Source: a virus (taxonomy: Duplodnaviria > Caudoviricetes). Taken from it: 60,286 bases of DNA. Below are positions 2,771 to 59,863 of the stretch, one piece after another; positions within the stretch are counted from its first letter, which is position 1; each line of letters opens with the position of its first letter. The translations under genes and the position numbers were made by a program. The notes under the pieces were generated by a model. It searched no databases and was not told the DNA's origin. It saw nothing but the letters and a program-made list of their open reading frames with translations. Where the stretch lies: IMG/VR virus record IMGVR_UViG_3300031539_000028, positions 1-60,286 of that record; one strand, 5' to 3'.

Positions 2771-5690
2771 GCGAACGGTCAGCATCCTCGCCATTCTCAG
2801 GGACAAGCTCTCCCCAGGTCTCTCCAACATCAGCAAGAACTTCCAGGGGCTCCGCACAACCGTCGGCACGCTCGGAAAGCAGTTCTCGTTCCTGACCAGC
2901 ACGGCCGCACGATTCATCGGGGCCTTCGCAGGCATTCAGGGCATTCGCAGAGCGCTGGACCTGGCCGAGAAACAGGTCGAGGCCACCACGCAGCTCGCGT
3001 TCGCGCTCGAGGGCCTTCCGGACATCTACGCGGACATAAACAAGCAGGCCAACGAGTTTCAGCGGAACACGACCGTCGGGAACGAGGAGTTCCAGCGGCA
3101 GGCCGCGATCCTGAAGGCGTCCGGCGTGGCGGCCGAAGACCTGGCCGAAGCCACGAAGGCCGTCTTTCAGGCGGCGACCGCGCTCGGCAGGCCTGTCGAG
3201 TCGATCCGCTCGCAGCTCGTCGCGATCACCGCGACTGGCACCGCGCGAGGAGAGCTCAAGGGTGCGCTCAGCGGGATCACCAAGGAGGCGCTCCTGCAGG
3301 GCGCGGCGTTCAAGGTGCTTGGCGAGCGATACGCAGGCGCGGCCGAGAAGCTCGCCGAGACTCCGTTCGGCAGAGCGAAGCAGGAGGCGAACAAGCTCGG
3401 CGACACGCTGGAGGAGATCGGCAAGACGCTGATAACGCTCAAGGTCGTAATCCTCGAGGCGGCGAACGACGCGGTGGCGAAGCTGCTGGAGCTCTTCCAG
3501 TCATCGACGTGGAAGGTGTACTCCGCCATACTCTCAGAGGTCATCTCGTTCGCGATCAACATGCTCCCGACCATCCTGTCGCTCGTCGTCGCCTACAAGG
3601 CGTGGCGGCTCGCCGTGTGGGCCGTGGTCACCGCGAAGCTCGCTCTGCTGGCGGTGTGGAAGGCGCTCCTCGTGGTCGGGGCGCTGTTCGCCCCGCTGCT
3701 GGCTCCCTGGATTCTCCTCCCGGTTCTGGTCGGAGTGGCTCTCGTGGCCGTGAGAAGCTTCTTCGGCGTCTTCAGCGGAACCTCGAAGGCGTTCGAGGAC
3801 GCAGGCAAGAAGTCGGCGGTCCTGTGGGACGGCATCGCGTCCGGTGCCATAGGGGTGAGCGACGCGCTCGCGGTGGTCAAGAACACGTTCATCACACTGT
3901 TCCTCGAGATCGGCGTCGGATTCTTCGACCCCGTCGAGTCGGCGTTCAGGAAGCTGTGGGCGATCATCGTCGGTGGCTGGCAGAGGATCAAGTCGACTAC
4001 GAGCCTGATCTTCTTCGGGATGGCAAAAGTCATCGGCGACGCGTTCTTCAACCTCGTCACGTTCATCGCGGAGAAGCTCGACAACCTGACGGGGACGAAC
4101 CTCGCCAAGGCCACGCGTGGCGGCTTCACCGCTCTGGACTCCCAGCTAGAGGATTCCAAGCGCGCAGCCATCGACGCCGTCTTCGAAACGAGAGACGCAC
4201 TCGACAAGATCGACGCCGACATGGTCAAGTCTGCCAAGACGGCAGCGAGTGCAATCGCGATGCTCGCCGCCGAGACGGAGGCCATCCTCGACAAGGCTCG
4301 GGCAGGTGCCGGTGCCGGTGCCGGTGGCGACACGATCCCAGGCGTGTCCTCCGATCAGCTTCAGCGAGAGATCGAGCTCGCCGCTCAGATAGCGGCCGTT
4401 CGCACAGGGACGAACAAGGAGGCGCTGGACATCATCTCGGCGCAGGAGGCGGAGGCGCTCGACCGAGACCTCAAGCTCGGGCGAATCGGCGAATCCGAGT
4501 TCGCCGCCGAGCGTCTCAGGATCGCGAAGGAAACCGCGGACGCCGAGGCCGACATCGTCCGCGAGCAGATAGCTGCTCTGGCTGAACTCGCGCAGTCGAG
4601 GTTCGAGTCTGGACAGGCGTCGGGAGACGTACTGCAGAAGCAGCTAGTACTCGAGCAAGAGCTGCAGGCCATGCTGGGGGAGCAGGCGAAGGGCGTCAGG
4701 GCCATAAGCGACGAGATCAACGTGCTGTCCGCAGCGCTCTCCGGCAAGGCAGCGATCGCCCAGGGCGAGCTGAACGCCGAGCTGCAGAAGACGGCCGAGC
4801 TCGTCGAGAAGGGCACCGTCACGTACGAGGAGGCGGCGGCCCGCAACGCCGCGGCCGCGAACGTGTTCAGGGAGGCGCTCACGGATATCGAGGTCGAGCT
4901 GCTGGCTTTGCAGACTCAGGGCGGCGACACCGAGGCGTTCGAGCTCGCCGCCGAGAAGATCAAGGTGATATGGGGCAAGACCGCGGACGCCATCGGGAAC
5001 GCAAGCGACGCGCTCGCCAGGCGGTCGCGGTCCACATGGACGGAGTTCGGCGCCGCGTTCCGGCAGCAGCTCGTGGCTCCGCTGACCGAACTGATGGACG
5101 GCCTTGGAGCGAGCCTCGTCGGGGTAGTCGACGGAGCCAAGGACGCCAACGACGCCTTCAGGGACTTCGGCAAGCAGGCCATTCAGGTTCTCTTGAAGCT
5201 CATTCAGCAGTGGCTCATCGCGAAGGTACTCGGCCTTCCGACGTTTGGATCGAGGGCCGGTGCGAACGCCGGGGGGCTCGTTCACGGATCTGGGCTCGTG
5301 TTCGCCGGCGGCGGACACGTTCCAGGCCCAGCCTCCGTTCACCGCGACACCGTTCCAGCCATGCTGACTCCTGGCGAGTTCGTCGTCCGTGAGTCGGCGT
5401 CGTCCTACTACGGTGCCGGGATCATGCGCGCCATGAACAGGATGCTGTTCCCGCGGGAGCTCTTCGGCAACGTGCCCGGCGGCGCTTCGCGCTACGCGCT
5501 CGGGGGCTTTCAGGCCGGCGGTGAGATCGCGGCCGGATCGACGCGCGACGGCGCGGAGCCCCGCGAGGCAGTCGTCGTCGCCAACGAGGCGGCGTTCGCT
5601 CGACTCCTCACCGGAGGTTCTGGTGCCATGCTCAGGTTCTTCGAGGCGCACAGGAACGAGATCGGTGGCATCTTGGGAAGCCGAAGATGA
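2763..5690 (+). CDS. Tape measure protein
   Basis: 975 aa, Ala-rich and helical, with a central hydrophobic segment and a C-terminal DTVPAMLTPGEFVV motif typical of TMPs. Confidence 0.9.
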   Translation: MPERTVSILAILRDKLSPGLSNISKNFQGLRTTVGTLGKQFSFLTSTAARFIGAFAGIQGIRRALDLAEKQVEATTQLAFALEGLPDIYADINKQANEFQRNTTVGNEEFQRQAAILKASGVAAEDLAEATKAVFQAATALGRPVESIRSQLVAITATGTARGELKGALSGITKEALLQGAAFKVLGERYAGAAEKLAETPFGRAKQEANKLGDTLEEIGKTLITLKVVILEAANDAVAKLLELFQSSTWKVYSAILSEVISFAINMLPTILSLVVAYKAWRLAVWAVVTAKLALLAVWKALLVVGALFAPLLAPWILLPVLVGVALVAVRSFFGVFSGTSKAFEDAGKKSAVLWDGIASGAIGVSDALAVVKNTFITLFLEIGVGFFDPVESAFRKLWAIIVGGWQRIKSTTSLIFFGMAKVIGDAFFNLVTFIAEKLDNLTGTNLAKATRGGFTALDSQLEDSKRAAIDAVFETRDALDKIDADMVKSAKTAASAIAMLAAETEAILDKARAGAGAGAGGDTIPGVSSDQLQREIELAAQIAAVRTGTNKEALDIISAQEAEALDRDLKLGRIGESEFAAERLRIAKETADAEADIVREQIAALAELAQSRFESGQASGDVLQKQLVLEQELQAMLGEQAKGVRAISDEINVLSAALSGKAAIAQGELNAELQKTAELVEKGTVTYEEAAARNAAAANVFREALTDIEVELLALQTQGGDTEAFELAAEKIKVIWGKTADAIGNASDALARRSRSTWTEFGAAFRQQLVAPLTELMDGLGASLVGVVDGAKDANDAFRDFGKQAIQVLLKLIQQWLIAKVLGLPTFGSRAGANAGGLVHGSGLVFAGGGHVPGPASVHRDTVPAMLTPGEFVVRESASSYYGAGIMRAMNRMLFPRELFGNVPGGASRYALGGFQAGGEIAAGSTRDGAEPREAVVVANEAAFARLLTGGSGAMLRFFEAHRNEIGGILGSRR

Positions 5691-7564
5691 GCATACTCGT
5701 TCCGTCTTCGCTCGTCGACGTCGAGGACTCTCCGCTGTCAAGCGAGCTGTGGGCGCTGGCGTACCTGTTCCTCGCTGACTGGAAGCTGGAAGCGTCCCTC
5801 GAGACGGCCTACTCGACCGACGTCGTCTCAGCCGAGACGGTCTCCGAGAGCCGCGTCGGACTCATCAACCGTCCATACCGGACGATGGCCGTCAACCTGA
5901 TGGGGCTGAACCGCGACGAGGGCCTGTCGCTCAAGATGGTCGCTAGCAGGCTCGCGCAGGCCGCCAACCTGATCCCCGTCTATGTGGATTCGTCGAGGCT
6001 GCTCTCAGCCGCCGACGCCGAAGACACCGCGCTCGCCTGCGACACGACGAATCGACGCTTTCAGGCGGACGGGAGAATCGTCGTCGCCGAGCCTACGAAC
6101 GGCGACGGGATGTTCTCGCAGTTCGAGGTCGCTGAGATCGAGTCCCTGACGGACTCTGAGATCACACTCAAGGCACCGCTCTCCGGAGACTTCCCGGCCG
6201 GATCGAAGGTCATGCCGCTGATGGAGGCCAGGCTCAGCCTTCAGAACTCCGGCATTTACCTGACCGCCGACACCTTCGAGGCGCAGTTCGCGTTCATAGA
6301 GAGCACTGGCGAGCAGACGCTGACTCCGACCGTGGCGCCCGGCACAGACCCTGCCGGCTTCCCTCTTGCAGAAGACGGCATCCCGATCATGGATCGCCGG
6401 TTCAACTGGAATAGCGACGTCACCGGAGGCATCCAGCGCGAGGGGGGCTACTCTCAGCTTGGGCGTGACTCAGTCGTTCAGGCTCACGGAGAGAGGGCGC
6501 GCGCCGTAGTCGGCTTCGCGGTCACGTCTCTCAACCGCGACGACGCGTTCGAGCTGCTGCGGTTCTTCGAGTCTCGCGGGGGCCGCCTTCACCCCTTCTG
6601 GATCCTCTCGCCTATGTGCGACTATGAGGCGAGCGAGATCACGCAGACCACCGTCACGGTCCGCGCAGTCGGCCCGGAGTTCGATTGGGCGTTCAGGCCG
6701 CACGTCGGGATCACGCTCAGCAACGGCACGATATACGTCGCGGAGGTCTCCGGGACCACTCGCATCGGCTTGAACGACGTCGTGACGTTCGCGGACCCGC
6801 TCCCGTCAGCTCCTCTCATTGGAGACGTCCGAAGCGTCAGGATGGCACACAGGGTGCGCTTCTCATCCGACGCCATGCGAGAGGCGTGGATCACCGACGA
6901 GACCGTCAGCGTGTCCCTGTCTGTCGTCGAGGTGCTTCAGGAGAAGAGCGTCGAGGTCGAAGGACTCCTGTCTCAGCCGAGCGGCCTCAGAGACCTGCGA
7001 GTCGAGGGGCAGAGGATCGGCGGCGGATTCGTTTGGCCGGCGCGCCCGTGGGACACCGCGCAGGTCAGCTCCGGCAGCCCTGTCCTGAAACTGTCTGCGC
7101 CGGCAATCACGGAGTTCGTGAAGGGCGGCTCGTCCGACAGGATCGGGAACAGGGTCCTCATGCGGGCGTTCGGCGTTGTCGTGGTGCGAGGCGTGTGGGC
7201 GAAGTTCTACACGGACTACGCAGGCAGCTTCGACCTCACGTTCCGCCTCGAGCGCGAGGAGGACGACGAGGTGCTCGCGGAGGTCACGCTGGACGAGACT
7301 ATGCTGGGCGTGGCACACGGCACGGTGAACAAGGAGAACTTCGCCTACGTTCAGTTCGTGGCACCTGCCTTGATAACGCGTGACCGATGGTACAGGATAA
7401 CGGTCGAGGCGAACCCGTGGGCTGACCTTCACATGAGTCAGTGGGCGGACCGGGGCCGGGAGGAGTTCCACGCCGCGGAGCGCGCCTCTGGCGAGTGGGT
7501 CGACGTGCCAGACGACGTGCTGGCGCTCGCGCTGCTTCTGGACGCCGGGGACTCTAGTCCGTGA
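5687..7564 (+). CDS. Tail protein (distal-tail-like) with extra C-terminal beta-sandwich domain
   Basis: ATGA overlap with TMP; LLRFFESRGGRLHPFW segment resembles distal tail proteins of GTA-like tails. Confidence 0.6.
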   Translation: MSILVPSSLVDVEDSPLSSELWALAYLFLADWKLEASLETAYSTDVVSAETVSESRVGLINRPYRTMAVNLMGLNRDEGLSLKMVASRLAQAANLIPVYVDSSRLLSAADAEDTALACDTTNRRFQADGRIVVAEPTNGDGMFSQFEVAEIESLTDSEITLKAPLSGDFPAGSKVMPLMEARLSLQNSGIYLTADTFEAQFAFIESTGEQTLTPTVAPGTDPAGFPLAEDGIPIMDRRFNWNSDVTGGIQREGGYSQLGRDSVVQAHGERARAVVGFAVTSLNRDDAFELLRFFESRGGRLHPFWILSPMCDYEASEITQTTVTVRAVGPEFDWAFRPHVGITLSNGTIYVAEVSGTTRIGLNDVVTFADPLPSAPLIGDVRSVRMAHRVRFSSDAMREAWITDETVSVSLSVVEVLQEKSVEVEGLLSQPSGLRDLRVEGQRIGGGFVWPARPWDTAQVSSGSPVLKLSAPAITEFVKGGSSDRIGNRVLMRAFGVVVVRGVWAKFYTDYAGSFDLTFRLEREEDDEVLAEVTLDETMLGVAHGTVNKENFAYVQFVAPALITRDRWYRITVEANPWADLHMSQWADRGREEFHAAERASGEWVDVPDDVLALALLLDAGDSSP

Positions 7565-9894: not shown

Positions 9895-12323
9895 CCAGCC
9901 TCGTGGTGTCGGCTGGCATATCAGCCATCTCGAAGGCGCTCGCTGACCCCGAAGCCGCCTCTCCCTTCGACGACAAGCCCACTCCCAGCGTGCGTCACGG
10001 CTCGTTCATGCCGCTCGTGTTCGGGCGTGGCAGGATAGCTCCGCTGTTCGCGTGGGTCGGAGACAGGCAGGTCGTCATCACGAAGGAGAAGGCTCCCGGT
10101 GGGAAGAGCAGCGTGTTCGGGAGCGGCCCGATATCCGTCTCGAGCTACTTTGAGCGCGCGTGGCACGCGCTCTGCGTCGGACCCGGCAGCGCGGTCGAGG
10201 GCATCTTCTCCAACGGCGAGCTCGTCTACGGGACCAGGATCACGCCGACGTCTCACCCGTCAGGCACGACCATCAGCGTCGCCGACTACGGCAGCTTCAA
10301 GCCCTACTGGGGTGAGATCGACCAGCCGGTCGACCCGCTGATATCGGCGAAGGTCGCAGCGTCGCGCTTCCCGCATGTGATGTCACTGGTGTGGGGCGCA
10401 CCGGGCCCACCGGAGTTTGGCGTATGGGGTGGGGCGAAAGGCAAGTACCTGGGACAGTCCGCCAACTGGCCGGCGATGGAGTACACCGTCGAGGTGCGCG
10501 TGAAGGACTCGCCTCTCCTCGACTCGCCGGCGTGGCTCGACGAGACAGGCGTCGACAAGGGCGACGACGGAGTGAACCCGGCTCATGCGCTCTGGCAGCT
10601 CCTGACTCAGCCGTATCCACACGGGGCCGGGATCGGCGTCGAGCACGTAGACGTGGGGGCCTTGGAGCGGCTCGGCGCGCTCTGCGCCGAGGAGCATGTG
10701 CCCATGAATCTCGTCGCTGGCGGAGGCATCGCCATCAGCGGAGTGATCTCTGCGATTCTCACCGACCTGAGCGTGACGCTCCCTCAGATCGGAGAGGTGC
10801 TGAGCGTGAACCCCATCAGGGAGGACGACCCGGCGATCACGCTCCCGAGCGACATCGTGATCGCGCCGCTCCCTGAGGTCACGATCCAGCATGAAGGGAA
10901 GCGTGCGGACAGGGTCATCTTCATCTTCCGGGATCAGACGAACAACTACAACGAGCAGGACATCGCCGTCGACGACGACGGCTCCGCGGATCAGTACGGC
11001 GTCCCCAAGGTCCGCAAGATACCCATCGCCATCGTGACGCATCCTGAGGTCGCGGCCGCGGTCGTCGACAGGCGTCAGCAGGAGGAGCTCGTCAGCGTGG
11101 CGGTCGTCACCATCAAAGCCTCCCGCGCAGCGAGGGTGCTCGTCTCCGGCCAGCCCTTCGTGGTCGCGGGGGTCGGAAAGCTCCGGCTCATGAGCACCCT
11201 TCTGGACGACCTGTCGAACGAGGTCTCTCTCGAGGCGATGTTCGACAGGTTCTCTCCGTCGCCCACGGCCTATGAGCCGCCGGCGCCCGACATCAACATC
11301 CCTGAGTACGACGCCGAGGAGGACTTCGCGTTCACGTTCTTCGAGTTCCCACTCTCGGTGGTGCCGGAGCTGAGGATCGGCGTGTTCCGCATACGGGCGA
11401 ACAGCGCGATATCGAGTGCTCCGGTGTGGCTCTCTGCCACCGGCGCATCGTATCAGCAGAACCACATGCAGAACGCGGCCTTCGCCGGCGGCGAGCTCAC
11501 GTCCGAGTTCGACGTCGGGATCGACACAATCGTCGAGCAGGGGCCCACGATGGACGCCGCGAACGACGACATCGCGTACGTCCTGAACCTGACGGGCGAC
11601 GACGAGAACTGGCGGCTCGGACTTCAGGTGTGCATCCTTGAGGACGAGGTGTCAGGCGAGCACGAGATCCTGTTCCTTCGGAACGTGACCGCGCTCGGCG
11701 GCGCGTCCTACCGGCTGGACGGTCTCATCCGCTCGAGGTACGACACGCTTCGCAGGACGTTCCCTGTCGGGACGAAGGTCTACGTCTTCCGCTGGAACGA
11801 CGTCGAGCGGATCGAAGACCCGCTCGTCGCGCTCGGCATCGACCTGTGGCTCAAGACTCAGCCTGGCACGAGCCGTCGGATCGTCGACGTGTCGACCGTG
11901 ACTCCCGTGGTCAAGACGATTGTCGGCCGCGGAGCTCGCCCGCTCCCGCCAGACAACTTCAGGGCCAACGACGACGGATCGCATCCCGTCGACGAGTACG
12001 GAGCCGGAGGCGACGTGCTCTTCGAGTGGACATACAGGGTCAGGAGCGGCTCCGGGGCCGCGGCCGGCGAGCAGCGCGCCGGCATCGCGATCACTGGGAC
12101 TCCGTCTCACGACGGCGTGTTCAAGGTCGAGATCATCGACCCGTCCGGGCCCACCGTCGTCAGGACGTTCGAGATCGACTCGGACGTGACGCAGCAGAGC
12201 TACACCAACGCTCAGCTCGTGTCGGACTTCGGCGGCGAGCCTGCCACGTTCGACGCTCGGCTGACGAACGTCGACGGGGCCTACGTGTCAGACGACCGCG
12301 AGATCAGCGTAGTCAAGGTCTAG
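9879..12323 (+). CDS. Central tail tip / host-specificity protein
   Basis: 814 aa; PLVFGRGRI, HALCVGP, VNPAHALWQLLT and YRLDGLIRSRYDT motifs of gpJ/GTA-type tips. Confidence 0.8.
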   Translation: MASVLASLVVSAGISAISKALADPEAASPFDDKPTPSVRHGSFMPLVFGRGRIAPLFAWVGDRQVVITKEKAPGGKSSVFGSGPISVSSYFERAWHALCVGPGSAVEGIFSNGELVYGTRITPTSHPSGTTISVADYGSFKPYWGEIDQPVDPLISAKVAASRFPHVMSLVWGAPGPPEFGVWGGAKGKYLGQSANWPAMEYTVEVRVKDSPLLDSPAWLDETGVDKGDDGVNPAHALWQLLTQPYPHGAGIGVEHVDVGALERLGALCAEEHVPMNLVAGGGIAISGVISAILTDLSVTLPQIGEVLSVNPIREDDPAITLPSDIVIAPLPEVTIQHEGKRADRVIFIFRDQTNNYNEQDIAVDDDGSADQYGVPKVRKIPIAIVTHPEVAAAVVDRRQQEELVSVAVVTIKASRAARVLVSGQPFVVAGVGKLRLMSTLLDDLSNEVSLEAMFDRFSPSPTAYEPPAPDINIPEYDAEEDFAFTFFEFPLSVVPELRIGVFRIRANSAISSAPVWLSATGASYQQNHMQNAAFAGGELTSEFDVGIDTIVEQGPTMDAANDDIAYVLNLTGDDENWRLGLQVCILEDEVSGEHEILFLRNVTALGGASYRLDGLIRSRYDTLRRTFPVGTKVYVFRWNDVERIEDPLVALGIDLWLKTQPGTSRRIVDVSTVTPVVKTIVGRGARPLPPDNFRANDDGSHPVDEYGAGGDVLFEWTYRVRSGSGAAAGEQRAGIAITGTPSHDGVFKVEIIDPSGPTVVRTFEIDSDVTQQSYTNAQLVSDFGGEPATFDARLTNVDGAYVSDDREISVVKV

Positions 12324-12334
12324 GGGAGGGTGAG

Positions 12335-12937
12335 ATGGCGAAGCGAGCATTCAACCGTCTGAGCGTTGACCCGGGGCAGGCCGGGTGGGACGCCACGGTC
12401 AACACAGACTTCGAGCGCATCGAGGACCTGATCGAGACGTATCCGTTCCCAGTCTTCGAGACGACCGGCGCTCTCCCGGCCGCCGGCGACAACGACAGGT
12501 CGCTCGCGTTCAAGGACGAGGGCGCCGGCAACTGGTCGCTCTACTTCTCGAACGGCACGTCGTGGATCAGGCTGGCGTCGGGGGCCGACGACCTCATCCC
12601 TGCGCTCGCCGACATCACGAAGGGTGCGGAGTCGGCGGACAACATCGACTTCACGATCCAGGTGCAGAATCCTCGAGCCGAGAACATCGCACGCAAGATG
12701 CTCGTCGACGTGTGGATCGGCACCGGCAGCTTCGGAGCTCCGGCCGGCACTCAGACCGTGACGGTCACGACCGGCGTCCAGATCGACGCCCCGCTCGTCA
12801 ATCAGCGCCTCAAGGTGCTGACGGACGCGACCGGCAAGGCCGTCGTCAGGGTGAACGTCACGGGGGCCGGGACTCGGTGGGTCATGGCGGCCATCGCCGC
12901 GAGCTCGAAAAGCCTTGACGGGACGTGGGCCGCCTGA
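12335..12937 (+). CDS. Small tail fibre / distal tail protein
   Basis: RBS ggggaggg; N-terminal GQAGWDATVNTDFERIE and LYFSNGTSW motifs; last gene of the tail operon. Confidence 0.6.
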   Translation: MAKRAFNRLSVDPGQAGWDATVNTDFERIEDLIETYPFPVFETTGALPAAGDNDRSLAFKDEGAGNWSLYFSNGTSWIRLASGADDLIPALADITKGAESADNIDFTIQVQNPRAENIARKMLVDVWIGTGSFGAPAGTQTVTVTTGVQIDAPLVNQRLKVLTDATGKAVVRVNVTGAGTRWVMAAIAASSKSLDGTWAA

Positions 12938-12965
12938 TACTCTTCGGCTCTCTTCTCCCGTCTCA

Positions 12966-13007
12966 GCGGCCGGCCGGGGAGCGCGGCTCCGGCCGGCCGT
13001 CTTCATC
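12966..13007 (+). terminator. GC-rich hairpin ending the tail operon
   Basis: cggccggccgg...ccggccggccg stem followed by tcttcatct. Confidence 0.55.
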
Positions 13008-13113
13008 TCGGAAGCGATGCTGTATCTTTCTCAAGCGAAAATCGATCCCGGATTTTTCGCAAAGCCGCTACGGTTTCGCTAATGAACGAGTTTGCGCGGG
13101 AGGGTGGTGCTCA

Positions 13114-13599
13114 TTTTTTTTCAGGATTTCTGGCTGGCACGGAGCTTGAGTGCGCTCAAACGCTGTGCCGACGTAGCTGGCACGAGACGTGCTGCAGGAT
13201 GCCGAGCGTCACGACCCGCCAGACAGGTATAGCGATCCCTTCAAGGAATAGATTATCCTCCGCTGGCATTCACCGTGAACGCTGGAACGCCACGGATCGC
13301 AGCATCCGGCCCGAATACGTCATCGCAGAAAACTGCCCTCAGGATCGCCTCAGAGCGATGTGCGGCGAATAGCAGGGTGACAGCGCCTGGCCTGCCGGAT
13401 TCACGCCTCCGGGGGGCTCCGTGCGCGTTACCATGCGGTAGCAAAACGGCCTTGTACCCCATGACCGCATAATGCTCTCGTAGCGTAAACCGCGGCGGGA
13501 TACGCTTTTATTCCTGGTCGGAGTTATCCGATCACGGTACATCGCTCAGGATGGGCGATCCTGCCACGCGGATGCCCGAGAAAAAACCTGAAAAGAAAA
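13114..13599. other. Large structured non-coding element A (candidate ncRNA or ssDNA-folding site)
   Basis: Nested pairings 13118-25/13587-94, 13194-200/13558-64, 13244-52/13507-15, 13291-96/13418-23, 13304-10/13394-400, 13321-26/13355-60; its reverse complement is similar to 59476-59670. Confidence 0.65.
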
Positions 13600-13650
13600 T
13601 CGCTTTTTCTAGCGTTTCCGCTAGACATCGCGTGCGCCATAGTCTATATA
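13580..13650 (+). promoter_or_regulatory. sigma70-like early promoter with upstream A-tracts
   Basis: tttccgc-TAGACA (13622-27), 17-nt spacer, TATATA (13645-50); same layout as 17941 and 29351. Confidence 0.55.
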
Positions 13651-13677
13651 CAGGTAGACGGAGAGAGGGGCGCGGGG

Positions 13678-13974
13678 ATGACTCTGGATCAGATAGCGGC
13701 GGACGAGAGGCGCGGAGTGGTGGCGGCGCTCGCTGCCTTCGACCGCACGTTCGCGGACGCCGGGCCTGGCGCCGACGAGTGGGCGACGACTCGCAGCGCG
13801 GTCGTCGCCGCACGCGCCGCTCAGCGCGTTCACGGGTGGAAGAGCGAGGCGGACGTCAGCTCGGAGCGCGCGCGCCTCAACGCCGTTTACGGGCGACAGT
13901 CGGTCGCGGAGATCGCCGAGAGCCTGATGAGCGAGAGCCGGGCCGCCTCAGGGGCGGCCCACGGAGGACGCTGA
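13678..13974 (+). CDS. Hypothetical protein
   Basis: RBS gagagaggg; first ORF after the promoter. Confidence 0.6.
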   Translation: MTLDQIAADERRGVVAALAAFDRTFADAGPGADEWATTRSAVVAARAAQRVHGWKSEADVSSERARLNAVYGRQSVAEIAESLMSESRAASGAAHGGR

Positions 13975-14043
13975 AGATGCTGAGGGTCATCGGACTGCTG
14001 TTCGACTGGATTCACGGCGATGCAGCGCGCGCGGAGGGGCTGA

Positions 14044-14077
14044 AAGCGGGGCCGGCGCAGGGCCGGCCCGAGGAGGA
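14044..14077 (+). repeat. 34-bp hairpin+RBS direct repeat, copy 1
   Basis: aagcggggccggcgcagggccggcccgaggagga; one mismatch to 15097-15130. Confidence 0.85.
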
Positions 14078-14084
14078 CGAGGCA

Positions 14085-14468
14085 ATGCCGAGGTACGAAC
14101 AGCGGACGTTCACGGTTCGGGACGGGATTTTCGGGGAGCTGCGCGAGCTCAAGGTGAGGGACAGGATAGACTCCCGAGTCGCGCGCGTCGTCGATCTACC
14201 CGATTGGGATCTCGTCGTCATCTTCAATCACGGGTCGAGGACGCCGACGAACGTCTCCTGCAGCATTCAACACGAGATCAGGCGCGCGGTGTGGGCGCGT
14301 CAGGACGGGTACGGTCAGGCAGGGTACACCCCGGCGCAGGGGTGGGACTGGTCGGGAATCCGCGACTCGTCGCAGGAGGCGCGCGCCGAGATGGGGCGGG
14401 CGATCCGCGCGACGCTCACGGTCAATAACATCGCTGTGCTGGAGTGGGACGAGCGGTCGCAGGCGTGA
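14085..14468 (+). CDS. Hypothetical protein
   Basis: GAGGAGGA RBS before ATG 14085. Confidence 0.6.
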   Translation: MPRYEQRTFTVRDGIFGELRELKVRDRIDSRVARVVDLPDWDLVVIFNHGSRTPTNVSCSIQHEIRRAVWARQDGYGQAGYTPAQGWDWSGIRDSSQEARAEMGRAIRATLTVNNIAVLEWDERSQA

Positions 14469-14512
14469 GAGAGCGGGGCCGCGGTGGGCGCGGCCGCAGG
14501 CGTGAGTGCGGA

Positions 14513-14534
14513 GCCCTTCGGGGCGGAAAGGTGG
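14513..14534 (+). promoter_or_regulatory. Tetraloop-hairpin + CGGAAAGG leader motif, copy 1
   Basis: gccc-ttcg-gggc-ggaaaggtgg, 8 nt before ATG 14543. Confidence 0.8.
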
Positions 14535-14542
14535 GTGCCGCA

Positions 14543-14749
14543 ATGGTGGAAGTGCGCTTCGAGGTCGGCAATTCGTACTTCGAGGGCGACGAAGAGGGGA
14601 CTGTGCGCATGGATGTCATCGCGCAAACGCTGCGCACCGTTGCTGCCGCTATCGGCGGCAGGGGCAACCTCCGCCCCAACGCCACGGTCTCGGGCGACAT
14701 TCGTGACGGCAACGGGAACGAGATCGGCACGTGGGTAGTCAGGCTCTGA
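14543..14749 (+). CDS. Small hypothetical protein
   Basis: 68 aa ending in IRDGNGNEIGTW, a motif common in small phage proteins. Confidence 0.65.
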   Translation: MVEVRFEVGNSYFEGDEEGTVRMDVIAQTLRTVAAAIGGRGNLRPNATVSGDIRDGNGNEIGTWVVRL

Positions 14750-14823
14750 CCGCTTCCTGCGCCGCTCCCTGCAATGCGGGGGGCGGTCAGGACGCCGTTG
14801 GGGTGCCTGAAGGGAGGACGGAC

Positions 14824-15048
14824 ATGGAAAGCATCGAGAGGCCCGGCGTGGACATCTGGAAGACCGATGGTCGCAGCAAGACCGGGCGCGAAGCGATTCT
14901 CGAATTCGTCAAGACCTATTGGGCAGACACCCGAAGCGTCAAGACGGTGCATGGCGACGGGACTTTTACACTACGCGGAGGAATCGCCACGTATCTTCTG
15001 GTGAACACGGACCCGCGCTGGTGGATCGTTCGCCGACTGGACGCCTAA
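14824..15048 (+). CDS. Hypothetical protein
   Basis: GGGAGG RBS; 74 aa. Confidence 0.55.
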   Translation: MESIERPGVDIWKTDGRSKTGREAILEFVKTYWADTRSVKTVHGDGTFTLRGGIATYLLVNTDPRWWIVRRLDA

Positions 15049-15096
15049 CCGACGCGCCTCAAGGAGTGGCTCTCGGGAGAGGCATTCAAGGACTAG

Positions 15097-15130
15097 AAGC
15101 GGGGCCGGCGCGGGGCCGGCCCGAGGAGGA
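15097..15130 (+). repeat. 34-bp hairpin+RBS direct repeat, copy 2
   Basis: aagcggggccggcgcggggccggcccgaggagga. Confidence 0.85.
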
Positions 15131-15137
15131 TCGCGGG

Positions 15138-15422
15138 ATGAACATCGTACACGTCATGCGGGGTCTCGAGCGGTCGCGCAGGCTCGCCGAGTCGATGGTC
15201 GAGCTCATTCGGCACGCCGAGGTCGAGATCGGATGCGACGAGGAGCACGCCGACTGGCCCGAGGCCGACGCCTCGATCTCGCTCGCGCGCGGCGAGCTCC
15301 TCAAGCTCGCGGCCGTCACCGTCGGACAGCCTGATCCGACCAGCCTCACGCTCCACGACGTCCACCACGAGGTCATGCGGCGCGCCGTCGACGCGGCCGA
15401 CCCGGACGGCGAGCGGGGATGA
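15138..15422 (+). CDS. Hypothetical protein
   Basis: GAGGAGGA RBS; 94 aa. Confidence 0.6.
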   Translation: MNIVHVMRGLERSRRLAESMVELIRHAEVEIGCDEEHADWPEADASISLARGELLKLAAVTVGQPDPTSLTLHDVHHEVMRRAVDAADPDGERG

Positions 15423-15523
15423 GGGTGTCCAAGCGCGCGTCCGAGGAGGCCCGCACGGCCTTCAGGGAGTATGCTCAGGCGAGGAACGAACTCGAGGCCG
15501 CACGAAGGGAGAGGGGACGATGA
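15419..15523 (+). CDS. 34-aa small ORF
   Basis: MRVSKRASEEARTAFREYAQARNELEAARRERGR; ATGA overlaps at both ends. Confidence 0.5.
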   Translation: MRVSKRASEEARTAFREYAQARNELEAARRERGR

Positions 15524-15866
15524 GAGAGAAGCTGGTCGAGATCACGCCGGAAGTCGAGGCCGTCCTGATCGCCGCGAGGTGCGAAGGCGAACGCCTCACG
15601 CTTCAGGGCCAGCTCGACCGCGCGCTGTACGTCCAGGTCGACAAGGTCTTGCGGGCGTCTCGTGGCACGCGTTCACCGGATTCTCGTGGGGCTATTGCGG
15701 CGAGGGGCCACGCGGCCTGCGCATGTTCCTGTCGTCGGTGGGAGTCAAGATCACGTTCCAGCGGATCGCCACTATGTGGCGGAGCAAGCCCGGCACGGTC
15801 GCCGAGATCAACCGGCGCGGCAAAGGCTGGCACATGGCTGTCGAGGGGGAGGGGAGCGCGGCATGA
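15520..15866 (+). pseudogene. Chimeric remnant: methyltransferase-like N-terminus joined out of frame to a GFSWGY-motif protein fragment
   Basis: VEAVLIAARCEGERLTLQGQLDRALYVQVDKVL resembles the N-terminus of a common phage methyltransferase family and loses coherence near 15650; another frame then reads FTGFSWGYCGEGPRGL... to the stop at 15866. Confidence 0.45.
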
Positions 15867-15961
15867 GCAGTCTGAATAAGCGTCAGCGTGAGGCGCTCAG
15901 TTGGGTGGGACGAATACGCGCTGCGCGTCGCCTGCGGAGCGACGGAGGATGGGGTGACGAC

Positions 15962-17902
15962 ATGAAGAACGAGGTGATCCCCGTCGAGGCTGCCGATACC
16001 GTCCGGGTGCCCAACTTCGAGCACCTGGCGCTCGGGGCGTGGGTGTGGGTGACCGACGAGGACGACGAAGATGGCGGAGAAGCCGAACGCTGGTTCGGCT
16101 GCATCACGCACGTCGGATCGAACTACATCAGGGTGGAGTCGCCGGGAGGGTCTCGCGTTAGGATTCACTCCGACGACATCGCTGACTCCGTGAAGCTCGA
16201 GAAAGATCCTGACTCGATCATCGTCGGTGAATGCCAGAAGGCTCAGCTCATCGTCCGCACGCTGTTGCGGAAGGTCAGGAGCATCCTATCCAACCTCGGA
16301 ATCGAGGACAAGCGGATGCTTCAGCAGCAGGCTCCCGAGGAGACGACTGCGCTGGCCGTAGTGTCATCAGCGAAAGACCCGCGAGACCATGAGCGCGCTC
16401 TCGTCAAGGCGCAGGACAAGACGCTCCCCGAGCTGTTCAAGCAGGTGAAAGAGGCCAACAGGACGCTTGCTATGTGGGCCGGAGCGCGTGTGCTTGAGAT
16501 GACTGCGGCCGTCGAAGCGATCGAGGAGAAGGTCGGAGAGATCGCTGGACGCATCAGGACGGTGCGACTGTACGCCGGACTTGCGGAGGACATCAAGCTC
16601 GTCCTGAAGGGCGAGCCGGCCGCGGCCGACGAGAGGCTCCGCATCATGCAGCGAAGATGCTACATGGACGAGGAGAGCCTGCTCGACTACACGCACGGCG
16701 GGATGGAGTTCAAGAACATCGACGGCTTCGACAGGTGGCTGTCCAAGAAGCACAACCTCAACCGAATCCTCCCGTTCCCCAGGTGCATGGTCGCGTTCCG
16801 AGTTCGCAGGCACGTAAAGGAGCGCGATTGGGACGGCAGCTTCGCCGGAGTCTTCTGGATCATGCACCAGGAACAGGCGGACAAATTCACCTACATGTAC
16901 ATCAGGAACGGCGACAGGCTCCACCGGCTCACGACCGATCTAGAGTTCGGTCCTCGACTCTTTCCCAGCAAGACGGAGCTCGTGATCGGCGAGAAGATGT
17001 GGGGCTCAGGCTTCACCGGGATCGATGAGCTGATCACGGACCGCGAGTATCAGGAGATCGTGAGGGAGCGCAGGGAGGCGCAGAGAAAGGCGAAGGCGTG
17101 GGATCGAGCTCACCCGAAGAAAGATCACTGGCGCAATCCTCACAATGGACACCGCCGCGACGACGACCATCACCCGTACGACCCAAGCAGCGTCTACTTC
17201 GACGACATGGACAAGATCATGAAGGACCGGATCGTTGACTACAACCTCATAGCATACATCGTCCAGGGCCTGTTCGACAGGTCTGAGGTCCTGCACCCGC
17301 ATCCTCAGGCTCGACTCTGGACTCAGGATGGATTCGACGCGGCCGTCGAGCTGGTCCACGACGACGACAACGTGCTGGCTCCTTCGGCCGCGCCTCCGTC
17401 TTGGGAGGAGTACCGAGCCGCCTGCAACGTATCGCTGTGGATCGGCTCGGTCACCATCGGTCAGGAGCGAGCATGGCTTCAGCGCGAGGCCCGGAAGTAC
17501 AACGCTCTGGCTAGCAGGGATCGGAGGCACACCTCGGAGCGCGAGCTGGAAGAGTACAGTCCATACGGTGACCCGGGCCCAGGTCGAATCGGGACTGTCT
17601 CCGAATGGATGCCGAAGGCGAGGAATGCCGTCTTCCGCTGGCGTCGGGAGCGTAGCTGGCACTCGAAGCAGCGCGTGTGGGACGCGAGCGACTACATCGA
17701 TGAGAGCATCCGAGTGGGGGCGGATCAGCTCTTCAACGTAAGCGCGTACAGGCCGGGTGACTACCTTCAGTTCTTCCAGGACCCGCGCACGAGGTCTCAG
17801 TATCTTCGGTGGGCGAACTACCTGCTGTCGGCAGAGGAATACCACTCAGGCAACCCGAAGTTTCAGCCAGAGGCGACGCTGGGTTCCGGTGAGGGCAAAT
17901 GA
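15962..17902 (+). CDS. Large hypothetical phage protein (coiled-coil N-half)
   Basis: 646 aa with genome-like codon usage; RBS before 15962; in-frame upstream ATG at 15864. Confidence 0.8.
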   Translation: MKNEVIPVEAADTVRVPNFEHLALGAWVWVTDEDDEDGGEAERWFGCITHVGSNYIRVESPGGSRVRIHSDDIADSVKLEKDPDSIIVGECQKAQLIVRTLLRKVRSILSNLGIEDKRMLQQQAPEETTALAVVSSAKDPRDHERALVKAQDKTLPELFKQVKEANRTLAMWAGARVLEMTAAVEAIEEKVGEIAGRIRTVRLYAGLAEDIKLVLKGEPAAADERLRIMQRRCYMDEESLLDYTHGGMEFKNIDGFDRWLSKKHNLNRILPFPRCMVAFRVRRHVKERDWDGSFAGVFWIMHQEQADKFTYMYIRNGDRLHRLTTDLEFGPRLFPSKTELVIGEKMWGSGFTGIDELITDREYQEIVRERREAQRKAKAWDRAHPKKDHWRNPHNGHRRDDDHHPYDPSSVYFDDMDKIMKDRIVDYNLIAYIVQGLFDRSEVLHPHPQARLWTQDGFDAAVELVHDDDNVLAPSAAPPSWEEYRAACNVSLWIGSVTIGQERAWLQREARKYNALASRDRRHTSERELEEYSPYGDPGPGRIGTVSEWMPKARNAVFRWRRERSWHSKQRVWDASDYIDESIRVGADQLFNVSAYRPGDYLQFFQDPRTRSQYLRWANYLLSAEEYHSGNPKFQPEATLGSGEGK

Positions 17903-21189: not shown

Positions 21190-21266
21190 GGTCAGGCGGC
21201 CGGTCGTCGACGGCCGCCGCCCGGCGCTCCGGCTCGGGGCGCCCGGCCGCGGTCGTGGGTGCGGTT

Positions 21267-21288
21267 GCCCTTCGGGGCGGAAAGGTGG
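21267..21288 (+). promoter_or_regulatory. Tetraloop-hairpin + CGGAAAGG leader motif, copy 2
   Basis: gcccttcggggcggaaaggtgg before ATG 21296. Confidence 0.8.
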
Positions 21289-21295
21289 TGACGCA

Positions 21296-21652
21296 ATGGA
21301 TACGCCCGCTGGAGTGCCGTGCTGGCACATTCACCATGATACGCTCCTGGAGTGGAGCACCGAACCGCTGTTGGAGCGCACGCATTATATCTACGCGAAC
21401 AAGCACAAATCCGAGCACGAGACCCGCCTGCGCCTCATGCGACCCGTGTCAGGCGAGCTGCCGAAGACCGTGGTCGCGGCCGGGGATAAGCTCTACGCGA
21501 CCCGGGAGGTGTACCACACGAACTGGAAGGTGTATGACGCGGCCCGAAGGGCGTTCGAGCTGTCCCTAAAGGCACACGAGACCGAAATCCAAGCCCTTCA
21601 CTCCCAGGAATGCCCCGACTGTCCCTGGGACGGTTACACGATCTTCCCGTAG
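21296..21652 (+). CDS. Hypothetical protein (His/Cys motifs)
   Basis: WHIHH...LHSQECPDCPWDG; 118 aa. Confidence 0.7.
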   Translation: MDTPAGVPCWHIHHDTLLEWSTEPLLERTHYIYANKHKSEHETRLRLMRPVSGELPKTVVAAGDKLYATREVYHTNWKVYDAARRAFELSLKAHETEIQALHSQECPDCPWDGYTIFP

Positions 21653-21664
21653 GGAATTGCCGGC

Positions 21665-21686
21665 GCCCTTCGGGGCGGAAAGGTGG
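21665..21686 (+). promoter_or_regulatory. Tetraloop-hairpin + CGGAAAGG leader motif, copy 3
   Basis: gcccttcggggcggaaaggtgg before ATG 21693. Confidence 0.8.
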
Positions 21687-21692
21687 GAAGCT

Positions 21693-21818
21693 ATGAGCGC
21701 AAAGGAACCACGGCATGGCAGAGAGTTCCGTCAATGCCACGCTAGGAGTTGTCCGCATCTCGTCGGGCGCTGGTGCAACAGGACACAGGGTTGCGTTATT
21801 TCTCGGGCGGGCAAGTAG
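21693..21818 (+). CDS. 41-aa four-Cys microprotein
   Basis: MSAKEPRHGREFRQCHARSCPHLVGRWCNRTQGCVISRAGK; fills the gap between two leader motifs. Confidence 0.55.
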   Translation: MSAKEPRHGREFRQCHARSCPHLVGRWCNRTQGCVISRAGK

Positions 21819-21840
21819 ACCCGAGAGGGCGGAAAGGTGG
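21819..21840 (+). promoter_or_regulatory. Leader motif, copy 4 (GAGA loop)
   Basis: accc-gaga-gggc-ggaaaggtgg before ATG 21847. Confidence 0.75.
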
Positions 21841-21846
21841 TGTAGG

Positions 21847-22752
21847 ATGTGTGAACACGCAGCTGCTATCGTGACGAAAACGAATGTCCACTGGTGCGAG
21901 ACGCCCTCGCATACGGACATGATCAAGAAGCTCGGCCTTCGCGACGACACGGAGTCGCCGGATTTCGTCCGGGTGCAGATCGTGCCGCCAGACGACCTCG
22001 ACTACCGCCTGCCGTGCGATCGGTGGCTGTTTCATCTCGACCAGGATTTCAGGCCGGACTGGTACAACCGCGAGGAGGTCGAAAGCGCCGTCAGGGCGAA
22101 ACTCCCTGAGTGGCGCACGCGATCCGTGGTCATGCCGGGCGAGCGCCGTGAGAAGCATGACGGCGGGCTGATCGTCGCTTGCTACGGCGAGATCGGCCGG
22201 GTCATCGGCAACGGGCGCGTGGACGTGGTCGTCGACAACGGGCGCGTGAACGGGGTCGTCGACAACGGGCGTGTGGGCGGGGTCTACGACAACGGGCGTG
22301 TAGACGGGGTCCACGACAACGGGAGCGTGGGCGTGGTCATCGACAACGGGCGCGTGGACTGGGTCTCCGACAACGGGCGCGTGGACTGGGTCTCCGACAA
22401 CGGGCGCGTGGGCGTGGTCTACGACAACGGGCGCGTGGACTGGGTCGCCGGCAACGGGCGCGTGGACTGGGTCGCCGGCAACGGGCGCGTGGTCCGTGTC
22501 GCCGGCAACGGGCGTGTGGACGTGGTCGACGACAACGGGCGCGTGGACGTGGTCGTCGACAACGGGCGCGTGGGCCGTGTCGCCGTCAACGGGCGCGTGG
22601 GCCGTGTCGCCGTCAACGGGCGCGTGGACTGGGTCTCCGACAACGGGCGCGTCACATCATACTGTGATTCCGGGTGCAGCGCAAAGCTCGCCGACAAGGG
22701 CCACATCATCGACATGCGCGGAGACAGGCCGAGGATCATCGTCGCGCAGTAG
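21847..22752 (+). CDS. Repeat-containing protein (predicted beta-solenoid)
   Basis: N-terminal MCE...SHTDMI domain followed by 17 nonapeptide (D/G/V)NGRVxxVx repeats. Confidence 0.8.
   Translation: MCEHAAAIVTKTNVHWCETPSHTDMIKKLGLRDDTESPDFVRVQIVPPDDLDYRLPCDRWLFHLDQDFRPDWYNREEVESAVRAKLPEWRTRSVVMPGERREKHDGGLIVACYGEIGRVIGNGRVDVVVDNGRVNGVVDNGRVGGVYDNGRVDGVHDNGSVGVVIDNGRVDWVSDNGRVDWVSDNGRVGVVYDNGRVDWVAGNGRVDWVAGNGRVVRVAGNGRVDVVDDNGRVDVVVDNGRVGRVAVNGRVGRVAVNGRVDWVSDNGRVTSYCDSGCSAKLADKGHIIDMRGDRPRIIVAQ
22207..22653 (+). repeat. 27-bp coding tandem repeat (about 17 units)
   Basis: aacgggcgYgt core repeated every 27 nt. Confidence 0.95.
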
Positions 22753-22770
22753 CCCGCGAGGGCGGAAAGG
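22752..22770 (+). promoter_or_regulatory. Leader motif, copy 5 (GCGA loop)
   Basis: gccc-gcga-gggc-ggaaagg before ATG 22781 (15-codon ORF). Confidence 0.7.
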
Positions 22771-22824
22771 ACGGGACGCGATGGCAGCGAGCAGGCTTCT
22801 CCCAGCTCAGGCGGAGGGCGCCGA

Positions 22825-29316: not shown

Positions 29317-29379
29317 AAAAGAAAAAGCCGGACCGTTAGGGCGTTTTCGCTGGACAAGCGAAGGCGCGGAGGATAGAAT
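29317..29379 (+). promoter_or_regulatory. sigma70-like promoter of the replication operon
   Basis: A-tract, ttttcgc-TGGACA (29351-56), 17-nt spacer, TAGAAT (29374-79). Confidence 0.7.
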
Positions 29380-32794: not shown

Positions 32795-33310
32795 GCTATG
32801 CGTGGCAGGGAAAAAACAGGCCCGAATCGCCCGAAAACGGCGTTTTGGGGGGAGCCTCGCGGAAAAAGCTATGATAAAAAAGCGCAACCTGTTGGGGGTG
32901 CGTCGGCGTTCACCGCAACATGTCGGGGTGGCCCTGAACGGAGAACCCCTATATATAAGGGGGGGGGACGCCCGATTTATAAAAACGTCCGAAGCAATAT
33001 GACAGTTATGACAAACCGAAAGATTCAGTTTATGCCGCCGGATCGGCTTACCTGGCCCTCAAACGTCATAACTCCAAGTTATGCTGTCATAACTTTTTCT
33101 ATGACAGGAATCCCCAAGTCCCGGGCGCCAAAGGACTTGCGGAAAACACGGTATTCTAGTGTGGTGGCCATTATCCTAGATTGGTCGGTCTCTAGACTAC
33201 GCGAGGATATCAAACGGCGTGTCAGACTCTCGCGTAAGATTCCACGGCTCGACGGAGCTCGGGACCGGCGCGACGACGAGACGCTCGAGCCACAACTGAC
33301 GATCATCAGC
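32795..33310. other. Putative replication origin
   Basis: Non-coding and AT-rich; several TATGAC/GTCATA repeats at 32998-33105; palindromes cccctatatataagggg and aagtcc...ggactt; lies between primase and helicase. Confidence 0.6.
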
Positions 33311-33409
33311 GAGGTTGCGACACGCTGTTACCGCTGCGACACTGAAAGTGCCGACGACCCGGCTTTTTCGTGTTCGAGAGAGGGCCACGCGCCCGCGCGC
33401 GTATAAGAG
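33311..33409 (+). promoter_or_regulatory. ~100-bp repeated regulatory element, copy 1
   Basis: Matches 44500-44599 at offset 11190: gttaccgc, aaagtgcYgacgacccggctttttc, cgcccgcgcgcgtataagag. Confidence 0.8.
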
Positions 33410-33428
33410 GGCGGAGAGGTTGTGGACG

Positions 33429-44499: not shown

Positions 44500-44599
44500 G
44501 AGCGTTGTGACCACGAGTTACCGCACGGTTACGAAAAGTGCTGACGACCCGGCTTTTTCATGTTTGGGCGAGGAGCCTTCGCCCGCGCGCGTATAAGAG
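44500..44599 (+). promoter_or_regulatory. ~100-bp repeated regulatory element, copy 2 (before terS)
   Basis: Matches 33311-33409; TATAAG at 44592-97. Confidence 0.8.
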
Positions 44600-44613
44600 T
44601 GCGAGGTGCGGCT

Positions 44614-51154: not shown

Positions 51155-51961
<807 letters not shown>

Positions 51962-58251: not shown

Positions 58252-58814
58252 TCAGCCTGAAGGAGCTACGCGACAGGCTGAAGCTGAGCCCTACTGACGA
58301 CGACCAGCTCTCGATCATCAGGGCGAACGTGATCGGGCTATGGGAGGTGCGGACGAATCGCCTCTGGAACTACCGTGCGGGGCACGTTCAGACGTTCATG
58401 CTTGACGAGAGTTGGCAGAGGTTCGCTCCGGCGTGGCTCTCGCTGACTCCTGTCGACGAGACCGGCACGGTGACGGTGGAGGATTGGGACGACGGTGACG
58501 ATCCCGAGGCGCTGGACGAGGATGAGTTCACGCTCCTGGCGAGCAGCGGGAAGCTCGTGAAGCTCCCGCGCGTGACGCCTTGGCTCATGAACGTCCGTGT
58601 CACGTACTCCGGTGGATTCGACGAGAGCTCCTGTCCCGAGGACGTCCGCGAGGCGCTCGCGATTCAGTGTCAGTACGCGCTCCTCAGGCATCGTGGCGAG
58701 AAGTCGATCCTGAGCGGGATCACGGGGCCGGCCGGCGGGGTCTCGTTCATGGTATCGGCGGACGTCCATCCGCACTTCAAGGCTCAGGCCGCGCTCCACA
58801 GGAGGCACCGCTGA
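58248..58814 (+). CDS. Head-tail adaptor
   Basis: ISLKELRDRL...DDDQL; VRVTYSGGF...CPEDVREA. Confidence 0.8.
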   Translation: MISLKELRDRLKLSPTDDDQLSIIRANVIGLWEVRTNRLWNYRAGHVQTFMLDESWQRFAPAWLSLTPVDETGTVTVEDWDDGDDPEALDEDEFTLLASSGKLVKLPRVTPWLMNVRVTYSGGFDESSCPEDVREALAIQCQYALLRHRGEKSILSGITGPAGGVSFMVSADVHPHFKAQAALHRRHR

Positions 58815-59850: not shown

Positions 59851-59863
59851 CTTGACCGATAAT

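Follow-up and report, generated by a model that had tools for sequence, protein, structure and literature searches.

The window, i.e., the whole stretch of DNA that was analysed, is a 60,286-nt IMG/VR virus record with a G+C content of 65%, which is classed as linear and has a completeness of 73% as estimated by CheckV. Its first ORF continues a gene with 126-nt repeats that runs off the end of the window, so the contig is probably a circular or permuted genome which was broken inside this repeat gene. The contig ends fall inside kelch-like repeats, and another public assembly of the flanking genes has a length of 60,516 nt.

Nearly all genes in the window are carried by the plus strand. The gene order, which was assigned with PHROGs and Pfam, leads from the terminase (45357) via the portal (51975), the major capsid protein (55694) and the adaptor (58248) to gene 58814-59482, which is followed by gap B. 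Downstream of gap B, a 61-aa gene (59677-59862, plus strand), the repeat gene crossing the contig ends, the tape measure gene (2763) and GTA-like tail genes up to 12937 were found. The tail genes are followed by the 740-nt gap A, and the early genes start at 13678, among them genes for an SNF2 helicase (26085), a primase (30986-32794) and a UvrD-like helicase (33315). Based on this order, gap A is the late/early boundary and gap B lies inside the late operon. Directly after the last tail gene, a G+C-rich inverted repeat with perfect arms of 11 bp (12962-13000, plus strand) was identified, a hairpin in the left part of the intergenic region A at which the late operon likely ends.

In the early region, short intercistronic G+C hairpins lie directly before ribosome-binding sites and belong to two repeat families, D9 (14507-14545, 21261-21299, 21659-21697, and 22746-22784) and D13 (13928-13968, 14037-14077, and 15090-15130). 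In-frame tandem repeats are present within gene 21715-22752 (22114-22734, at least 16 copies of a 27-nt unit) and within gene 51155-51961 (51292-51569, with a 12-nt unit rich in Pro-Glu). The early ORF 15662-17902, coding for 746 aa, has no match in Pfam, PHROGs, NCBIfam or PDB sequences. Neither tRNA nor tmRNA was found in the window, no DNA polymerase family was recognized among the ORFs scanned with Pfam, PHROGs or NCBIfam, and no lysogeny genes were recognized in this phage.

The major capsid proteins of the closest cultured phages are at most 26% identical, and a capsid-protein profile led to relatives at 44-50% identity. A search with the J-like tail protein returned one distant relative (G001) and a search with the 58814 gene two weak matches. 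No relatives were obtained with 5687-7561 in metagenomes, nor with 13678-13971, 12320-12934 or the major capsid protein, each alone, in viral_contigs. Parts of 12300-15300 are contained in 16 sequencing runs, with no RNA run among those listed, and public soil and sediment runs contain nearly identical DNA in the same arrangement. The contigs of four runs (X1, X4, X7, and X8) show the reference arrangement over 11500-15500 without joints; in region A they differ only by 13058 C>T and 13568 G>A, which are too few to gauge conservation. One X4 contig is ~84% identical over 12605-12939, the end of the last tail gene, and is unlike the window right after the stop codon, which may point to a related phage whose region A differs.

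Inverted homology of the two regions and the repeated core

In the initial annotation, the ranges 13114-13599 and 59476-59850 were described as two homologous, self-folding non-coding elements on opposite strands, which align along one ungapped diagonal of about 135 nt. This diagonal (position sum 72911) exists and extends over ~156 nt. Without gaps, the reverse complement of block A1 (13271-13426, minus strand) is identical to block B (59485-59640, plus strand) at 87 of 156 positions (55.8%), and the space from the stop codon of gene 58814-59482 to the ribosome-binding site of gene 59677-59862 is taken up by block B. Across 20,000 random diagonals of the window, the identity is 27.1 ± 4.1% and at most 43.6%, which corresponds to z = 7.0 for A1/B. 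The flanks without the core still reach 48.7% over 113 nt, a value matched by none of 20,000 random diagonals. The best local alignment between A and B has a score of 42 and lies far above that of 300 dinucleotide shuffles (19.4 ± 2.1, maximum 30; z = 10.5). The pair is the longest inverted repeat (I1) of the window, and a weaker homology with indels of 1-2 nt seems, on reading the sequence, to go on to about 59658. A1 and B are a genuine, ancient and diverged inverted duplication of non-coding DNA. The homology is confined to these ~156 nt and does not comprise the whole ranges first proposed; moreover, the range at B is non-coding only in part, as 59476-59482 is the end of the upstream gene and 59677-59862 is a gene (GC3 0.81).

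The matches are clustered, with an 11-nt run and 20 of 22 positions identical in the core compared with ~49% in the flanks, and the conserved islands and the 18/20 core which had been listed are indeed present in both copies. Core copy 1, ACATCGCTCTGAGGCGATCCTG, is located at 13340-13361 on the minus strand and forms an imperfect palindrome, ATCGC-N6-GCGAT, and the copy in B, GCATCGCTCTGAAGCGATCTGT, at 59550-59571 on the plus strand. The 16-mer ATCGCTCTGARGCGAT has two matches in the window at up to 2 mismatches, namely in A1 and in B, where 0.12 are expected. A third copy (core copy 2, ACATCGCTCAGGATGGGCGATCCTG) was identified at 13539-13563 on the plus strand by local alignment and as part of the inverted repeats I4 and I12. 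Compared with core 1, which lies 177 nt away, it has an inverted orientation. Its gapped local alignment has z = 4.2, with at least one of 200 shuffles scoring higher (maximum 27.0 versus 25.5 observed), and its neighbourhood has nothing but the core in common with A1 or B, the identity outside the core being background. The pattern ATCGC-N4-10-GCGATC occurs six times in the window with 1.5 matches expected, and three of the six are the cores. The other three matches, ATCGC-N4-5-GCGATC, lie inside the primase gene (31620-31634 and 31912-31927), two of them being both strands of one palindrome, and may be due to chance. The spacer between the palindrome arms is 6 nt long in two cores and 9 nt in the third.

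Seven nucleotides 3′ of the 22-nt core, the island GTTTTCTG is located at 13326-13333 on the minus strand and again at 59578-59585 on the plus strand. The window contains three copies of it, the third of which follows the strong terminator hairpin 1981-2008; the island could be a weak U-tract after an imperfect hairpin. A sigma-54 site, for which GGCAGTTTTCTGC was considered by eye, was rejected, as A lacks one base of the required spacing and B has no GC element. Neither A nor B is enriched in GATC, and GCGATCC shows only a modest enrichment with four copies in 738 nt of A versus 0.8 per kb genome-wide.

The shared 12-mer GGTCGTGACGCT, which had also been pointed out, occurs at 13205-16 and 59790-801 as reported and can be extended to a 15/16 match, GGCGGGTCGTGACGCT, between 13205-13220 (minus strand) and 59786-59801 inside gene 59677-59862. 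About 1% of 500 shuffles reach its score, and 60 of 3000 random region pairs have a 12-mer in common. The match may stem from the same duplication as a further remnant, shifted by ~95 nt, but is suggestive only. A MITE-like element with a 26-nt terminal inverted repeat (13114-13139/13573-13598, 77% complementary) was considered and dropped, since the arms are A/T runs, no target duplication was seen and B does not have the arms.

All four relatives that cover the locus lack gap B, the 61-aa gene and the kelch-like portion of the repeat gene. In each of them, the homologue of gene 58814 directly precedes that of the repeat gene's C-terminal part, which identifies B as the 5′ edge of an insertion in the tail operon that is specific to this lineage. 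The stretch 59483-60286 plus 1-1132 comprises the 61-aa gene and kelch-like repeats of 42 aa, which are fused before a conserved tail-module protein of ~150 aa, and is a lineage-specific insertion or N-terminal extension. At the protein level, no remnant of the 61-aa or the kelch-like gene was found in region A (all E > 0.05).

No orthologue of the element was found in the collections searched. A blastn search of 12900-13700 against 50,697 phage records gave no match, the exact core pattern had none in viral_contigs and the extended pattern none in metagenome_contigs. The 18-mer searched in genome_contigs had 61 matches where ~69 are expected by chance (17 fixed bases, 596 Gb), and none of them extends beyond ~28 nt. 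The element is likewise absent from the 80 loci returned for relatives of the major capsid protein (632,641 nt; blastn and fuzzy core search) and, by blastn, from the distant relative G001.

The inverted copies bracket the tail genes, given closure of the contig through the repeat gene, and the imperfect core palindrome has a spacer of 6 nt, so that A1 and B could be viewed as crossover sites at which a site-specific recombinase inverts the tail module. This reading is scarcely credible. Among the ORFs scanned, none matched a recombinase family, the spacers of the two copies differ in one base, and an inversion would uncouple ~14 kb of tail genes from the late operon. Furthermore, the contigs of the four runs show only the reference arrangement over 11500-15500, where rare forms could escape contigs.

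Folding, coding capacity and priming

The elements had been described as extensively self-folding, with stems that differ between the two. For the full ranges, an excess of folding was confirmed, with z = -4.96 and -3.14 in A (0/100 shuffles) and a milder signal in B (z = -2.2 and -2.8), but the homologous blocks taken singly fold like shuffled sequence (z = +0.41 to -0.78), and windows of 120 nt over 13220-13459 range from z = +1.45 to -1.42. Sliding windows place the signal at 13460-13660 and 59520-59679, in parts that are non-homologous or differently folded between the copies, and in region A it partly originates from long-range pairing of inverted repeats. The local structure that is present lies in the non-homologous parts and is unlike between the copies. 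The only hairpin common to A1 and B is the 5-bp stem ATCGC-N6-GCGAT. The RNAalifold consensus (plus strand in B, minus strand in A) has an energy of -24.9 kcal/mol compared with -24.4 ± 4.1 kcal/mol in 300 column shuffles (z = -0.13) and contains 12 compensatory pairs compared with 10.7 ± 2.8, and the other strand has z = -0.83; this covariation test is based on two paralogous copies and has low power. Both consensus energy and compensatory pairs thus stay at shuffle level, which speaks against a large structured ncRNA.

A cis-acting or small RNA, read from the plus strand at B and from the minus strand at A, would be either an attenuator, consisting of a hairpin and GUUUUCUG, or an antitermination-type element in the manner of nutL/nutR of lambda or putL/putR of HK022. 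Besides the relic discussed below, this is one of the two main rivals to the reading as a control module, and it has to be regarded as rather improbable. It is favoured by the core hairpin with GTTTTCTG shortly after it in both copies, as the only other GTTTTCTG of the window follows a strong terminator hairpin. Provided that the late operon is one unit, transcription of B is certain, and on the plus strand the windows over 59520-59679 have folding z-values of -2.2 to -3.05. However, the part of B that is locally structured lacks a structured equivalent in A, and the common structure is missing, as shown by the consensus values given above. The imperfect hairpins before GTTTTCTG in A1 and B (-13.2 and -12.7 kcal/mol) rank only 47th and 55th of 183 T-rich tracts, and neither is listed by the terminator scan. 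Both promoter scans found no minus-strand promoter upstream of A1, from which such an RNA could be transcribed there. In the Rfam search over the whole window, no family matched at the gathering thresholds and only noise was obtained at E ≤ 10, in agreement with the earlier assignment to no recognized family.

A small paralogous protein gene was considered for the same DNA. ORF 13253-13462 (minus strand, 69 aa) and ORF 59449-59649 (plus strand, 66 aa) share one open frame as well as AHRSEAI..AVF, with a BLASTP E-value of 2e-7 for the single comparison of the two ORFs, and as read from the sequence both differences in the 20-nt core are synonymous in that frame. Nevertheless, a coding origin of the homology is most improbable, since the conservation is not of the codon type: the identities by codon phase are 33/52, 25/52, and 29/52 with the second position being the least conserved, synonymous differences are not in excess in any frame (p 0.44-0.99), and the BLASTP positives equal the identities (18/38). 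In addition, the ORFs of A1 and B show no GC3 signal and no family match, no homologue of the B ORF was obtained among proteins with 36-116 residues, and none of the 8 ORFs of the two regions that were looked up is present in a collection of 15 billion proteins, which contains the products of both flanking genes. The 61-aa gene directly downstream of B belongs to no known family, as its product has no match in PHROGs, Pfam or NCBIfam, and exactly this protein is present in a public collection.

The initial annotation had further suggested a pair of single-strand initiation (ssi) sites, as the phage encodes a RepB′-like primase. For the primase gene 30986-32794, Pfam matches were obtained to RepB_primase_C (E = 2.8e-4) and RepB_primase (E = 0.016), and no PDB sequence matched. 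Both domains match below the curated cut-offs only, so this context is weakly supported. In RSF1010, ssiA and ssiB are two highly similar inverted repeats of 40 nt inside oriV, the ssiA hairpin spans nt 7-27 and initiation takes place at T32 of a GTG (Banchenko et al., 2021; PMC8567376). The likeness to the present case consists in two similar hairpin-containing sequences on complementary strands of a replicon with a RepB′-type primase (PMC8567376): the copies with their 18/20 core lie on opposite strands, cores 1 and 2 are divergent and 177 nt apart (z = 4.2), the phage primase is weakly similar to both RepB′ domains, and no DNA polymerase family was recognized among the ORFs given to Pfam, PHROGs or NCBIfam.

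Whereas the RSF1010 sites lie together in oriV with a hairpin of 21 nt each within 40 nt (PMC8567376), the stem shared by A1 and B has 5 bp and is unstable, the conservation extends over ~156 nt, and the two sites are at least 14 kb apart and not in one origin. As single-stranded DNA, the core hairpin (45-48 nt) has energies of -6.0 to -8.1 kcal/mol with z = -0.30 to -1.21, and 23-72 of 200 shuffles fold at least as well. A GTG 3′ of the hairpin is present in B only. Sites of the RepB′ type would be expected beside iterons; region A contains no tandem repeats, and no origin features lie alongside the cores. A better origin candidate is found by the primase gene: directly after it lies the stretch with the lowest G+C content of the window (32801-33200, GC 0.517), and all three exact copies of TATGACAG in the window fall within 32998-33107, together with inverted GTCATAAC copies within ~110 nt. 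The segment 32795-33314 also has AT-rich runs beside these repeats. This iteron-like cluster is likely a replication origin or an operator array. It is thus very unlikely that A1 and B are priming signals for the RepB′-like primase on opposite strands, and the extended version has an equally slim chance, in which all three cores would be putative sites of this primase, the pair in region A an RSF1010-type strand-displacement origin, and the copy in the tail operon an extra priming site. If this were true, a tailed phage without a polymerase of its own would replicate with plasmid-style ssi signals. Of the earlier proposal of a duplicated non-coding element of no recognized family, the duplication and the missing Rfam match stand, and the structured-ncRNA and ssi readings are not supported.

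Promoter-like sites at equal distances from the cores

At the 3′ end of A1, a leftward sigma-70-like site, TTCACG-16-GATAAT, was identified on the minus strand (13252-13279), which matches the consensus at 9 of 12 positions. A rightward site with the same score, TAGACA-17-TATATA, is located at 13622-13650 on the plus strand and was found in the relaxed scan. Its end lies 28 nt ahead of the ATG at 13678, with which the first early gene starts, and its -35 is overlapped by the palindrome CTAGCG-N4-CGCTAG. In region A (12940-13700, both strands), these are exactly the two sites with 9/12 in the relaxed scan, they are divergent, and 15 such sites exist in the whole window. The stricter scan lists the leftward site but not the rightward one. 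Neither scan lists a promoter-like site in B, where the position homologous to the A1 site reads TGCACG-15-GATATG (59632-59658, plus strand), i.e., 6/12 with a spacer of 15 nt. Taking three scans together, 10 sigma-70-like matches were obtained over 1-60000 with ~4.9 expected from shuffles, which is not clearly above chance.

The distance from the start of the core to the start of the -35 hexamer is 82 nt for core 1, 82 nt in B and 83 nt for core 2, and the orientation matches in each case. As the surroundings of core 2 have no other sequence in common with A1 or B, its spacing of 83 nt is an independent observation. Both this regularity and the call of the early promoter were noticed after the fact. 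In addition, the -10 region of the A1 site contains the 10-mer GCGGAGGATA, whose only other exact copy lies in the -10 region of the intergenic site 29351-29379, the top-scoring sigma-70-like site in the window (10/12). The leftward site has no convincing gene downstream of it. An ORF of 37 aa (13156-13269) starts upstream of the -10 of this site, has no good ribosome-binding site and does not align with the 61-aa ORF.

A direct repeat of 100 nt, whose copies are 76% identical, was found in two gene-boundary gaps (33314-33413 and 44504-44603). Each copy has a small hairpin, then TTTTT, then CGCGTATAAGAG. From its sequence, we read this repeat as a probable duplicated unit of terminator plus promoter ahead of the helicase and packaging modules.

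The equal spacing also bears on the other main rival, in which A1 and B are a sequence relic without present function, i.e., a decaying old intragenomic duplication or a recombination scar from the insertion at B. The identity of only 56% fits such a decay, as do the position of B exactly at the edge of a lineage-specific insertion, the missing homologues in the collections searched and the possible 15/16 remnant displaced by ~95 nt. A relic is nevertheless unlikely, while deserving more weight than the RNA reading, as the matches are clustered in an 11-nt run and a 20/22 core between flanks of ~49%, and the third core keeps the same spacing to a promoter-like site. Phage genomes moreover tend to lose useless DNA.

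A putative transcription-control module

Short conserved islands and a fixed spacing in the absence of covariation form the pattern which is expected of recognition sites for proteins or RNA polymerase. We therefore favour, tentatively and with slightly less than even confidence, the reading that A1 and B are diverged copies of a putative transcription-control module which lies upstream of promoters and acts at the DNA level, and are neither an RNA gene nor a priming site. Such a module would consist of an upstream part, the core of ~22 nt, the fixed distance of 82-83 nt and a -35/-10 pair. The core palindrome ATCGC-N6-GCGAT would be the putative binding site of a regulator, centred near -105. 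Region A would then contain two modules back to back, A1 directed leftward and the module of core 2 directed rightward toward the early genes, and B would be a third module inside the late operon, heading the insertion of the 61-aa gene and the kelch-like repeat extension. We infer from the sequence that the hexamers may serve as promoters, that a protein may bind the core and that transcripts may result.

For the module, the third core, the two divergent 9/12 sites, the equal spacing, the distance of 28 nt to the early ATG and the shared GCGGAGGATA were counted, as well as the 100-nt repeated intergenic unit and the position of B at the insertion edge, as judged from 4/4 relatives. Against it, we counted that the B hexamers reach 6/12, that the total of sites is not clearly above chance, that the spacing and the early promoter were noticed post hoc and that no convincing gene lies downstream of the leftward site. 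Furthermore, the arm spacers of 6 and 9 nt are awkward for a single dimeric binding mode, no regulator was recognized among the ORFs scanned, and no orthologous element was found in any collection searched.

In lambda (nutL/nutR) and HK022 (putL/putR), homologous cis-acting elements occur in pairs, one on each strand of the phage genome. They follow closely downstream of divergent early promoters and function as RNAs whose stem-loops are conserved. A1 and B resemble them in being paired homologous elements on opposite strands, and CGCTCT in the core resembles the start of boxA. However, no shared RNA structure is detectable here, and core 2 is located upstream, not downstream, of the predicted early promoter.

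A parallel may also be drawn with the PeSL regulatory cassettes of T4-type phages, which are described as strong sigma-70-like promoters joined to effective terminator stem-loops and present in many copies of closely similar form (Arbiol et al., 2010; PMC2839356). In both cases, short composite non-coding motifs are repeated at several intergenic places of one phage genome; PeSLs are tied to variable non-essential genes and to insertion or replacement events (PMC2839356), and B lies at the edge of such an insertion. In contrast to PeSLs, there are two long copies and one core-only copy here, with 56% identity and one of them inverted relative to all genes, the stem-loop is weak, and the promoter-like score is 9/12 in A1 and 6/12 in B.

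Similarly, morons are described as differing in G+C content and carrying their own promoter and terminator for prophage expression (Cumby et al., 2012; PMC3594210). Like them (PMC3594210), the 61-aa gene and the kelch-like extension after B, absent from 4/4 relatives, are extra genes between conserved genes of the tail operon with putative upstream control DNA of their own. Unlike morons, they occur in a phage in which no lysogeny genes were recognized, no clear promoter or terminator is present at B, and A1 has no associated gene.

As a general caution, the paired hairpin/ssi and the large-ncRNA readings, which an inverted intergenic homology of this kind readily invites, failed the shuffle controls. 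If the reading as a control module is true, a single upstream control module is employed repeatedly by this orphan soil phage, at three promoters in all, two of them divergent at the late/early boundary and the third ahead of an inserted gene of the tail operon. Control DNA would here have moved along with a newly inserted gene or have been copied to it, and the case would provide a testable handle on gene timing in an uncultured phage lineage.
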